From: Obrimoposthia wandeli
Taxonomy: Eukaryota
Direction: 5' to 3'
Assembly: GCA_977020255.1 (NCBI GenBank)
Contig: CDROCS010000066.1
Coordinates: 62,001-126,000 of the forward strand
Length of the DNA stretch: 64,000 bases
The notes under the pieces are model-generated. The model was not told the origin of the DNA. It did not search any database and saw only the letters and a program-made list of their open reading frames with translations. Position numbers and translations under genes: made by a program. This document shows positions 29,279-32,200 of the stretch, piece after piece. Each line of letters opens with the position of its first letter. Position 1 is the first letter of the stretch.

Positions 29279-32200
29279 ATGATCCGAGAACAAGTGATCA
29301 ACTCAATCCAGCCAAAATATCATGCTGAAATAGTATCATCCGCGCCAAGTGTAATTACATCGATAAACGACGAAATTATAATTTTACTAAAAAATCGATG
29401 GCCGTCATCAACTGAGATACGAGTAAATTTAATTAATTATGCGAAAACACCGATATCTAAGCTGAATGTTACCTATTTTGATGGATTGTCCATCATGGGT
29501 AAATTGGAAACAATTGTCATGTGCTATGGAGCACAGTTCCAAGTTGAGATACTTAAAGATAGCGTAATACCGTATCCGATTCACAAATATGAAGGGGAAA
29601 TCAATCCAATTATTCTAACCCCTTCATTAATTTCAGTTCAGACAGACATACCAGAATACCCTTCGAGCGAGTCTAGTGAAGACAGCGAACCAGAAAGTAA
29701 CGATACAGAATCAACAGAATCCGAAGATAACATAATAGAGCGATTCGGAAGAACCATGGAGGTTGAATTCGCTAAAGAGAGCAGAAAAAGACAAAACATG
29801 GAATTCGTAAAACAGAATATACAAGAAAGACGAATTAAATCTGCAGAAGAGACCGAGTCGGAAGAAGACTCAACAAAGGAACAGACATCAGAGACAAAGA
29901 TGAATATCTCTCCAGCAATACGAATGCTGAGAGGAAAGAAACTGGCGAAACTATCCAACATCGACGAACAGATAGAGAAGAGATTAGAAAGACTAAAACT
30001 TGAAGAGTCAGAATTAATGCCACCAATGAGTGAGATCATTCCAGGTAAGTTATACCTCGGAAATGTGGAGGATGCAACAGATGAAAAGAAACTGTTGGAA
30101 CAAGGGATAACATACGTGATCAACGTTACAATGAATCACAAATCACAATATCAGACGATCAGAGCTATGACATTAAGAGTAAAAGACTCAATGGACGCTA
30201 ATCTTCTCGAATGGTTCGTAGAAACAAACGAAATACTTCACAGAGAACTCCGGAACCAAGGAAAAGTGTTGGTACATTGTCAGAAAGGAATTTCTCGATC
30301 AGCAACTCTAGTATTAGCATACCTAATAAAGACTAGACGAATGCAGGTACTAGAAGCGCTAAAATACCTACAGGAGAGAAGAAGTATTGCAAACCCAAAT
30401 CTTAATTTTTTGGGACAGTTGGCAAATTACCAACTTCTGTTGCAAGAACAAAGACGGATGGACGACATTCCTGAGGATCCAAAGGAAAAGAATTTATTCC
30501 AAGCATTATCACTGACTGGGTTATTCTTAGCCGGAGTCGACAAAATTACACAGATAATGCCAAAAGTATTTTTATGTCATCCAGGAGATATAGATACTGC
30601 TGGATTAAAGTTCCATAGTATCAACCGAGTAATCAACATTGTTGAAGTCGGAAACGAAATAATCAGTCTGTGTCAAAATACTGAAGATGACACCACTCGA
30701 TACATACATGCTTCCAATCGAGAGATAAACGATGCACAACAACATCTGACGAAATTGACTCAAACCATCAAAGCCGAAGTCACAGAAGGAAACGGCGTTC
30801 TGATATATCAGAAAAAAGGTACAATGTTAGCGCCTACCATAGGTGTATCCTTGTTGGTAGAGTACCATGGTCACACGCCAGAAGAAGCGATGGTCTACAT
30901 CAAACAGAATAGACCAGATACGGAATTCAAACCGTTACTCGTTCGAGAAATAGAGAAATACACCGAAAAGAGGAAGCAACAACGAGAAACAAATGAAGCT
31001 ACAACAACAGTGCCCAGCTTTCAATACCAAAGATTGCTAGCGATAGGCTTGTTAAGTTGTTTAATGCCGATAACGGGAGCACAAGAGATAGGCTCCAACC
31101 ACGGAAATAGTTCCTGGTTCAACGAAATCCACAACTACACCATACAGTACCATACGCCGGCACTGATGATGCTATTAGTGTTGTTAGGACTAATTGATGT
31201 GTGGATCATCCGAAAATGTCTTCGATCTATGAGAACCGACAGTAAAAGATTTCAGTTTGTAAAGATGAAAAGACCAAATGGACCGACGAACAAAGTGCTT
31301 GTGTATCTAGACGAAAGGATCGAAGACAACATAGTAAATGAAGCGATATTTTACCCACAAAACAGAATACTGAATCAATTCCGAATAGATTACGAAGCTG
31401 ACCGACAACACACACTTGACCGAATATCAACAACATTCGCCAGATGCAAGCGAAGAAAACGAGTTGTAAAGGAAATACAAAAAGATGCTGATACAAAAGG
31501 ACCAACGTATATATTCGACGGCGATGTCATCAAAACACGTGAGTATGGAAGTAAGAGAGTGATAATCGAAACGATGGAAGGACATAAAATATGCTTGTCC
31601 GCCAAAAATGGATTCGGAAAGTTGATGATACAAGGTAAACAGGTACAGTTGATTATCGGAAAAAATGGAATCGAGGAGATGTCAAAACAACGACAGATAA
31701 CAAAACGATCTAATCAGAAACAGATATCTCTCAAACGATTGATAATTAAAACCCTTTGCAAAAGGTCAGTCAAGGCCCTGTGCACCGTTGCACAAGGATT
31801 GATCTACGGAGTAGTAATTGGATTGGTATTACAAGCCATGCCGACCAGTAAAGCTGAAATGATGACATTATCCGAATATAATCTACATTTGAGAAATCTA
31901 GACAACACCCTCGAAATAATCAAGACGTCCTACAGTAAAGCTGTAATGATCATGTGTGTAAAAGGATGTCCAGGACGAATATGTATAGTCCCAGCGACCG
32001 AAATGAAAACACTTAATGGACATTATGGAATTGATGTTGTCACATGTGAAGACTACACATTTGGACAAACTAAAATAGTACTTCTCAGTGACATGTCCAA
32101 CCAAAGTGCACACAAATTTAAAATATTAACCATCAAGAGTAAAGGAATACCAGCAGTACGTTATGGTATTCTAGAATTGGTTAATCCAATACTGGCACTG

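Follow-up and report, generated by a model that had tools for sequence, protein, structure and literature searches.

Dual-specificity phosphatase domains, one of active type and one catalytically empty, on a deleted Ty3/gypsy element of Obrimoposthia wandeli

A phosphatase pair in the post-integrase frame of a Ty3/gypsy element

We analysed a stretch of 64,000 nucleotides of Obrimoposthia wandeli (assembly GCA_977020255.1, contig CDROCS010000066.1, positions 62,001 to 126,000), hereafter the window, which contains a Ty3/gypsy insertion bearing two adjacent dual-specificity phosphatase (DUSP) domains: D1, of active type, and D2, a pseudophosphatase. The DUSP pair on this Gypsy element is real; the element is of a known kind, its cargo apparently undescribed. 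Our preferred reading, to which we give a probability of roughly 0.45, is that of a retained, element-borne pair in which D1 acts on stress mitogen-activated protein kinases (MAPKs) and D2 is a non-catalytic partner. That the DUSPs are element-borne and long retained is, taken by itself, highly probable.

The insertion is a deleted, non-autonomous Ty3/gypsy copy, from a family in which the Pol frame extends beyond the integrase into a long accessory polyprotein. Between its terminal repeats, on the plus strand, one frame with a single stop encodes RNase H, integrase, three beta-rich repeats, the DUSP, the pseudo-DUSP and membrane segments, followed by three RING-finger open reading frames (ORFs). 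ORF1 (26699-29269, 856 aa) comprises RNase H, integrase and 280 more residues. The Ty3/gypsy-type RNase H at its start (26705..27010; Pfam RT_RNaseH, aa 3-104, E 2e-38) precedes an integrase (27338..28441) with an H2C2 zinc finger (Integrase_H2C2, aa 214-272, E 5.5e-19), a DDE core (rve, aa 290-386, E 2e-13), a GPY motif at 28295 and the clade-typical RYELRS at 28424; RNase H before integrase is the order expected of Ty3/gypsy elements. An in-frame TAA (29267..29269, context CCA TAA AGA) divides ORF1 from ORF2 (29270-33697), which continues in the same frame for 1475 codons without an intron or break and holds both D1 and D2. At the local base composition, a stop-free frame of that length would arise by chance with a probability of ~1e-46.

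The beta-rich repeats lie at 28607..28843 (repeat 1, with a YxDG motif), 28931..29164 (repeat 2) and, downstream of the stop, 29345..29584 (repeat 3). Their similarity was matched by 0 of 2000 shuffles for repeats 1 and 2, 5 of 2000 for repeats 1 and 3, and 0 of 2000 for repeats 2 and 3; because this repeat family sits on both sides of the TAA, ORF1 and ORF2 were probably one formerly. Programmed read-through or a spliced ORF2 start may still operate, but there was no indication of either, and no pyrimidine tract precedes the ATG at 29279. The preliminary description had placed the pair inside a Gypsy-type polyprotein; it does share the frame of RNase H and integrase, but one TAA intervenes and gag, protease and reverse transcriptase (RT) are missing from the insertion. 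Five long Pol relatives align only from ~26700 on, and two relatives of the same clade (P0014 and P0018) have RT ahead of RNase H; since these retain what is absent here, the 5' genes were presumably lost by deletion. It is doubtful that this copy, interrupted by a stop and without the 5' genes, expresses D1 and D2 from its own polyprotein.

The left terminal repeat (25459..25671, 213 bp, TG...CA, with a TATA box, TATATAA, at 25633) is 100% identical to the right copy (35632..35844) and appears to be U3-like. Identity between the ends stops ~30 bp past the TATA box; past the 213-bp repeat the two ends, compared over 25459-26030 and 35632-36146, are related and diverged (216 identical among 276 aligned pairs, 385 columns). 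Each leads into a different tandem array, on the left one of 65 bp with 9.2 copies (26032..26629), ~70 bp beyond which the Pol frame begins, and on the right 34-bp arrays in an extension (35845..37480) with AATAAA at 37392. The ends could be recombinant, with a common U3 and with R/U5 from two subfamilies. The right end has two candidates, 37467 (CA followed by GATAG) and 37480 (followed by ATAG), which give an insertion of ~12 kb from 25459. The corresponding target-site duplications, of 4 bp or an imperfect 5 bp, are each obtainable by chance, and this evidence is weak because ATAG occurs four times within 35844-37600. An identical 15-mer stands at 35582, just ahead of the right 213-bp repeat, and at 37270, near the right end. 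No primer-binding site or polypurine tract was evident by eye beside the 213-bp repeats, and an Rfam scan of 25400-37600 gave 0 matches.

The active-type domain D1 and its origin

D1 (30026..30445) resembles the MAP-kinase phosphatases (MKPs) and carries a complete catalytic signature, each motif lying where it was first reported: VKDS at 30179-30190 with the general-acid Asp at 30185, HCQKGISRS at 30275-30301 with His 30275, Cys 30278 (codon 30278-30280) and Arg 30296, AYL at 30317, and NPNLNFLGQL, of the pattern NPN.NF..QL, at 30392-30421. Pfam DSPc matches ORF2 in two stretches (139 bits, E 9e-41). Against a host DUSP profile made of 144 domains cut from 162 search hits, D1 retains 31 of the 35 columns that are conserved and 35 of the 37 that make up the hydrophobic core. 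An AlphaFold2 (AF2) model of D1-D2 from a 17-row alignment reached a mean pLDDT of 82.5 and a pTM of 0.58, with DUSP secondary structure in both halves and pLDDT below 50 at residues 166-176 and 215-239. The D1 model superposes on human MKP-2 with Z 26.0 (rmsd 1.2, 143 aligned). With HCx5R, the general-acid Asp, AYL[M] and the DUSP fold all present, D1 is, judged from its sequence, most probably an active cysteine phosphatase.

Several comparisons bear on the donor of D1. Its best sequence match in the PDB is DUSP10/MKP5 (E 4e-25), and its top relative among the best 150 of 19038 matches, P0141, is 46% identical and has a rhodanese domain. The PNxNF[LM]GQL motif, present in D1 as PNLNFLGQL, is accompanied by rhodanese in 29 of 31 assessable host domains that have it versus 25 of 39 that do not, a count that set aside 74 domains with short N-termini and no rhodanese domain detected. 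Fold searches returned Z scores of 24-26 against cellular DUSPs versus 20.2 for granulovirus PTP-2, 19.1 for orf virus OH1 and 15.8 for a baculovirus RNA phosphatase. The phylogeny against host DUSPs that had been proposed as a check was only partly informative: the free tree leaves D1 unplaced, but a tree constrained to join D1 with the 70-row MKP group lies 17.7 log-likelihood units above it (p-AU 0.72). With moderate confidence, these comparisons point to an MKP as the donor, its rhodanese docking domain having been left behind.

Third-position base use in the DUSPs is that of Pol (chi-square p 0.72) and unlike that of the exons of the nearby host tubulin gene (p 1e-13). Since D1 is also intronless, a long residence in the element is suggested. 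There is a strong case that the intronless DUSP derived long ago from a cellular gene, probably via RNA, and that both domains have since been selected for fold.

The pseudophosphatase domain D2

In D2 (30545..30976) the DUSP fold is accompanied by replacement of the catalytic residues, with Asn 30716 for Asp, Tyr 30806 for His, Gln 30809 for Cys and Leu 30827 for Arg, and by loss of the PNxxF motif. The earlier account of a neighbouring copy that keeps the fold and has YQKKGTML for HCxxGxSR is borne out, the motif spanning 30806-30829, of which the 30806-30811 first given covers the Tyr and Gln alone. By itself D2 matches Pfam DSPc at 28.5 bits (E 1.4e-6, profile positions 2-129 of 133), under the curated cut-off of 33.5, and it spans positions 3-142 of the host DUSP profile at 32.8 bits with few indels. 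D1 and D2 are identical at 28 of 136 residues, a score attained by 2 of 2000 shuffles. Conserved columns are retained in D2 more often than variable ones (11/35 vs 4/59, p 0.003). Codon identity between the two domains is 42 of 136 at position 1, 70 at position 2 and 47 at position 3, where chance is ~0.29; position 2 reaches 26/36 in core columns and 34-46 of 136 in 12 shifted registers, and the excess over position 1 has p 0.0008. This position-2 excess and the better retention of conserved columns argue for long selection on the D2 fold. That D2 serves in a structural or a regulatory capacity is, in our judgement, an even call.

The preliminary description pointed to a STYX-type trap, an idea in which D1 would dephosphorylate MAPK or STAT sites and D2 would occupy those sites in their phosphorylated form. 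A dead DUSP-fold domain does adjoin an active-type one, and, in the available text of the sources cited here and below by PMC number, Cys-replaced bracovirus PTPs (protein tyrosine phosphatases) have been proposed as traps (PMC3573978) and STYX is described as binding ERK (PMC8622459). D2 has the DUSP fold with Cys replaced that such proteins share but lacks the P-loop Arg (x5R): STYX alters Cys alone and MK-STYX retains x5R (PMC8622459), whereas in D2 the phosphate-binding Arg has given way to Leu and the acid-loop Asp to Asn, with Gln and Tyr standing where Cys and His would be, and PNxxF is gone; nothing found links STAT to D1 or D2. Because the phosphate-binding Arg kept by STYX-type proteins is lost, a phospho-trap is improbable. 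Among the DUSP matches, a 931-aa protein (P0134) carries three DUSP domains, all of which retain the Arg but have Ser in place of the catalytic Cys; it fits a STYX-type trap better than D2 does.

Relatives of the element and of its phosphatases

Relatives of ORF1 were taken as the best 120 of 3003 matches (lengths covered, 470-1498 residues), and the integrase tree was built with 60 of the 119 matches covering that domain. The integrase of the element is at most 62% identical to those of other Pol proteins and forms a clade with eight of them (P0014-P0020 and P0022; SH-aLRT 98), which is apparently unnamed. All eight have the motif [RKP]Y[PN][LF]R[SP] past the integrase, and their frames stay open for 129-720 residues beyond it. 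Extra aspartic-protease-like domains follow the integrase in three of the eight, while five (P0014, P0015, P0018, P0019 and P0020) have signal-like or transmembrane (TM) segments without such a protease explanation. The variable cargo of these relatives consists of extra protease-like domains, or of a signal peptide, beta-rich ectodomain, TM segment and tail. BLASTP and hhalign detected no homology between their cargo and that of the element. Since all eight run on and no cargo homology is seen, the post-integrase run-on is a clade trait in which cargo varies.

A search of the protein relatives for Gypsy plus DSPc architectures gave none besides the pair in the window: the DUSP profile matched 0 of the 120 Pol relatives, of 470-1498 residues. 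A tandem D1-D2 query against proteins of 584-2000 residues found 13 matches, none with more than 50% coverage. When ORF2 aa 241-1439 was searched against 1.84 billion representatives, the best 150 of 19038 matches, all at 84 bits or above, where weaker relatives of the cargo could not appear, peaked in D1. Of the 162 DUSP matches, 0 aligned by BLASTP with Gypsy Pol or with ORF2 outside its DUSPs. Two matches join a mobile-element domain to a DUSP, namely P0012 (stork, RVT_1 + DSPc), without a match to Gypsy RT, and P0139, whose N-terminus we take to resemble a pogo-type transposase; both are taken for candidate gene-model fusions. No Gypsy-borne DUSP fusion was found in the literature searched, outside of which lie Repbase, Dfam, GyDB and the primary Burro paper.

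The DUSPs might not be stable cargo at all, being instead a host retrocopy or an assembly chimera that stands in frame behind the integrase by chance. This would agree with the stop that divides the two ORFs, with terminal regions that diverge past 213 bp and with the lack of the pair in any relative. It sits poorly with a repeat family that straddles the stop, with the 1475 codons of ORF2 unbroken by an intron, with a codon make-up like that of Pol and unlike that of host tubulin, and with relatives whose layout runs on likewise, and we consider it very improbable.

Proposed mode of action and points against it

If the pair is retained cargo acting on stress MAPKs, the element protease would cut the accessory polyprotein near IRML (29918..29929), a candidate retroviral-type protease site upstream of D1-D2 suggested by a motif scan, and so free the two domains; signal peptidase would process the membrane region; and the hydrophobic segment at 31034 would tether D1-D2 to a membrane on its cytosolic side. 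We hold the protease and membrane-anchoring steps with moderate confidence. D1 would dephosphorylate stress MAPKs of the JNK/p38 type, perhaps docking through KRLERLKL (29978..30001), which resembles a MAPK docking (D) motif and lies just ahead of D1, and stress or apoptotic signalling would thereby drop in element-expressing cells; both of these steps are weakly held. D2 would serve as scaffold or spacer, or as a module that selects substrates or acts allosterically, comparable to Cdc14 A/B or receptor PTP D1/D2. Words similar to IRML occur at ORF1 aa 603, ORF1 aa 617 and ORF2 aa 2, and the scan gave candidate words in the element and in five of its eight clade relatives. KRLERLKL is a lead only: the D-motif pattern was chosen once the sequence had been seen, and the stretch is one of two strict matches in 2332 residues.

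The MAPK/STAT targeting proposed at the outset survives in its first half. Because D1 is nearest to MAPK phosphatases, MAPKs are a reasonable target class, and as the actual substrate of D1 we rate them a little short of even; nothing points to STAT. The element may manipulate host signalling.

Several observations weigh against the preferred reading. The DUSP element is a single copy and a broken one, with a stop ahead of the DUSPs and without gag, protease or RT; none of the 120 Pol relatives carries a DUSP; the pTM of the tandem is just 0.58; and the protease sites, topology and docking motif are pattern readings. As to the origin of D1, human MKP-2, Slingshot 2 and STYX tie in the fold search (Z 25.4-26.0, within 1 Z unit), and the free tree, in which 146 columns for 145 rows are too few and the MKP group was named after the tree had been seen, puts D1 outside that group and in no starred clade. 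No rhodanese/KIM domain was found in ORF1 or ORF2 with Pfam Rhodanese or with an iterated profile from MKP-type N-termini, of which 54 matched.

The loss of a docking domain would suit a change of substrate, and D1 might be active on proteins that the element itself encodes (Gag, integrase, cargo tails) or on some other non-MAPK substrate. Poxvirus VH1 acts on virion proteins. D1 is encoded with Pol, hence co-made and possibly co-packaged, the cargo carries Tyr-containing tails (IYEHI), and an MKP origin is not fixed by the tree. Nevertheless, D1 retains the MKP-type PNLNFLGQL and has a docking-like motif next to it, itself a weak argument, and we think a switch to such substrates unlikely.

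The case for D2 as a working partner is also weakened by its core hydrophobic columns (26/37, under the 29 of the lowest of the 144 host domains), by the low pLDDT, below 50, of model residues 215-239, by a position-2 signal that comes partly from the profile alignment and from constraint on D1, and by the downstream parts of the polyprotein, which enforce an open frame regardless. D2 may therefore be eroding. In that case D1 would be functional and D2 a decaying passenger, an old duplicate or a second capture, in a frame kept open for the downstream membrane proteins; the disappearance of all catalytic residues and of PNxxF, and codon positions 1 and 3 at chance against D1, fit such decay. 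A full-length profile match with few indels is harder to reconcile with it, as are conserved columns that outlast variable ones (p 0.003) and the distance between codon positions 2 and 1, unexpected even from decay. We regard the decaying passenger as quite unlikely and keep the retained pair with a non-catalytic D2 as the best explanation.

Other components of the element

The beta-rich repeats (28607-29584) lie between the integrase and the DUSPs and are without a signal peptide. They are Ig/IPT-like as a lead only: TIG clusters of the ESM Atlas score 0.86-0.88, and the repeats gave no Foldseek match at E 0.001 and no Pfam TIG match. The AF2 model of repeat 2 has five strands and a pLDDT of 60, and in a fold search made by way of this model the best match was plexin A2 residues 567-642 (Z 6.7, rmsd 2.1, 69 aligned), with weaker leads to the DBB domain of BCAP (Z 5.3) and to NFAT/NF-kB dimerisation domains (Z 4.4-4.7). 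The idea that the repeats are degenerate retropepsins was rejected (hhalign probability 0.3%).

The remainder of ORF2 (31034..33697) appears from hydropathy to be membrane-associated, with four segments of TM strength at 31154, 31775, 32189 and 33521, two shorter signal-like hydrophobic segments at 31034 and 32465, a Tyr-containing tail (IYEHI) and a Cys/Pro-rich C-terminus. It had no significant Pfam or PHROG match, to an F-type or gB-type fusion glycoprotein or otherwise. Viral glycoproteins make up most of the ESM Atlas clusters closest to it, but with scores below 0.8, which is chance level. Homology of this region to the ectodomains of the clade relatives was unsupported by BLASTP and reached at most 1.6% with hhalign. 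Within it, the TM segment of 32189-32460 leads into CC, a stretch of basic residues and a tail rich in Tyr and Pro, an arrangement common among type I membrane proteins; Pfam matches of this part to reovirus p10 and WBP-1 stayed below threshold (E 0.06-0.13).

Three stand-alone RING-finger ORFs follow on the plus strand, each matching Pfam zf-RING_2: ORF 1 at 33818..34117 (99 aa, E 5e-9), ORF 2 at 34178..34483 (101 aa, E 8e-9) and ORF 3 at 34823..35320 (165 aa, E 2.5e-8), the ATG of the last lying immediately 3' of a pyrimidine-rich stretch that ends in CAG. Third positions of RING ORF 1 agree with Pol (p 0.33). Those of ORFs 2 and 3 are C-rich, unlike Pol (p 2e-22) and closer to host tubulin, which suggests a later capture.

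A wider reading joins these components, and as a whole we find it doubtful. It would see in the element and its relatives an undescribed animal Ty3/gypsy clade whose post-integrase frame is an exchangeable accessory polyprotein, cut by its own protease and by host signal peptidase and forming here a virus-like kit directed at stress and immune signalling of the host. The kit would comprise a phosphatase of MKP descent, its docking domain exchanged for a dead partner domain and a short motif; IPT-like decoys, located in the cytosol, for dimerisation domains of the Rel/NFAT type; membrane proteins that resemble receptors; and ligases of the RING type.

Genomic surroundings

The DUSP element interrupts a second Gypsy element, older and decayed, that runs on the minus strand (21916..39542), with LTR-like repeats at 21916-22301 and 39109-39542 (75% identical) and Pol remnants at ~22900-25500. 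A 1-kb inverted repeat (20157-21125 and 45489-46414, 73% identical), possibly of a DNA transposon, flanks the nested Gypsy elements, which within its arms lie 3' of an alpha-tubulin gene. This gene (6311-18751) has four exons and is divergent, exon 3 being at most 60% identical to any listed match; over all four exons, which 100 of the 120 listed matches covered, its highest scores are with the tubulins of the trematodes Clonorchis and Fasciolopsis and with two other proteins (510-515 bits, next 485), and a flatworm host is accordingly likely.

Elsewhere in the window, a broken reverse-transcriptase ORF (Pfam RVT_1) with adjacent fragments at 41284-43603 reads as a non-LTR element, and a short ORF at 47444-47806 with a DUF7047 match (E 1e-12) is probably a transposon remnant. 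Host-like exons with a Gln/Asn/Pro-rich region lie on the minus strand at 56591-58524; 56591-57790 has no Pfam match, and one motif may resemble NUFIP1. An ARAGORN call of a tRNA-Leu(TAA)-like sequence in AT-rich DNA (45235-45317, minus strand) may be spurious.

Significance

Retrotransposons are usually seen as gag-pol(-env) only, countered chiefly by small RNAs. The present pair suggests that some transposons may bear virus-like tools that dampen host stress signalling. If that is so, retrotransposons with a captured, long-kept phosphatase act on host kinase signalling much as large DNA viruses do, and the active-plus-dead pair is an independent origin of the Cdc14/receptor PTP layout. Should the wider reading hold, this would be a retrotransposon-encoded MAP-kinase phosphatase, of which the literature searched gave no description. 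For Burro it has been proposed that flatworm elements rich in cargo interfere with apoptosis and stress pathways of the host (PMC6431247); D1 and D2 are small and assayable as encoded, and make this idea directly testable. The clade with post-integrase run-on (the element and its eight relatives) merits a survey of its own.

Comparison with known systems

MKPs (DUSP10/MKP5, DUSP1, DUSP4/MKP-2) share with D1 the catalytic fold and motifs and are its best sequence matches and tied-best structure matches. They differ in having an N-terminal rhodanese/CH2 docking domain, whereas D1 has none, is intronless and stands in a retroelement ORF, with a dead copy and then membrane segments after it. Active and catalytically empty domains of the same fold are joined in one chain in Cdc14 (dead A, active B) and in receptor PTPs (D1/D2). 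In Cdc14 the order is reversed with respect to the present pair, and its match was confined to D1 (Z 17.0-17.6); RPTP-alpha extends across the two domains, though only at rmsd 11, with no common domain arrangement seen.

STYX and MK-STYX resemble D2 in having a DUSP fold without the catalytic Cys; in STYX Cys alone is changed and in MK-STYX the Arg is kept (PMC8622459), whereas D2, fused to an active-type partner, is without all four of Asp, His, Cys and Arg. Viral phosphatases (poxvirus VH1/OH1, baculovirus PTPs, bracovirus PTPs) offer a parallel of phosphatases on mobile elements, and bracoviruses carry both active and dead ones (PMC3573978). These are stand-alone genes of DNA viruses, however, and D1 is structurally closer to cellular DUSPs.

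Giant planarian Gypsy elements, named in the preliminary description as the nearest precedent, are one for cargo, but for neither phosphatase cargo nor the position of the cargo. Burro/GYPSM1 elements likewise have a Ty3/gypsy Pol fused in a long ORF with captured regulatory domains, as well as accessory ORFs, tandem repeats and RING/ubiquitin-related cargo (PMC6431247), and the host of the DUSP element is probably a flatworm too. The Burro cargo listed in the available text of that review comprises AIR1, Smc, MATH, BIR, ankyrin, BCL2, SUMO-like, dUTPase and env, with no phosphatase, and the word 'phosphatase' is absent from its main text; the env-like region sits between gag and pol (PMC6431247). 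Here the cargo comes after the integrase, and the listed Burro domains are absent from the ORFs scanned, the region upstream of RNase H being missing; Burro elements exceed 30 kb, versus ~12 kb for the DUSP element, a deleted copy. According to a survey of Ty3/gypsy elements that carry env, the order in flatworms is GAG-ENV-POL; 'phosphatase' is absent from the available text of that survey (PMC13524379), as it is from those of PMC8532177 and PMC11410931.

In orchids, Ty3/gypsy elements carry an ORF for an AlkB demethylase whose activity has been demonstrated in vitro (PMC9289625); in the available text of that paper 'phosphatase' occurs once only, in a reference. The orchid enzyme differs in being encoded by a separate ORF, in modifying RNA and in having a plant host, and the DUSP pair is known from sequence alone. 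Common to both would be an LTR retrotransposon that has retained a captured host enzyme.

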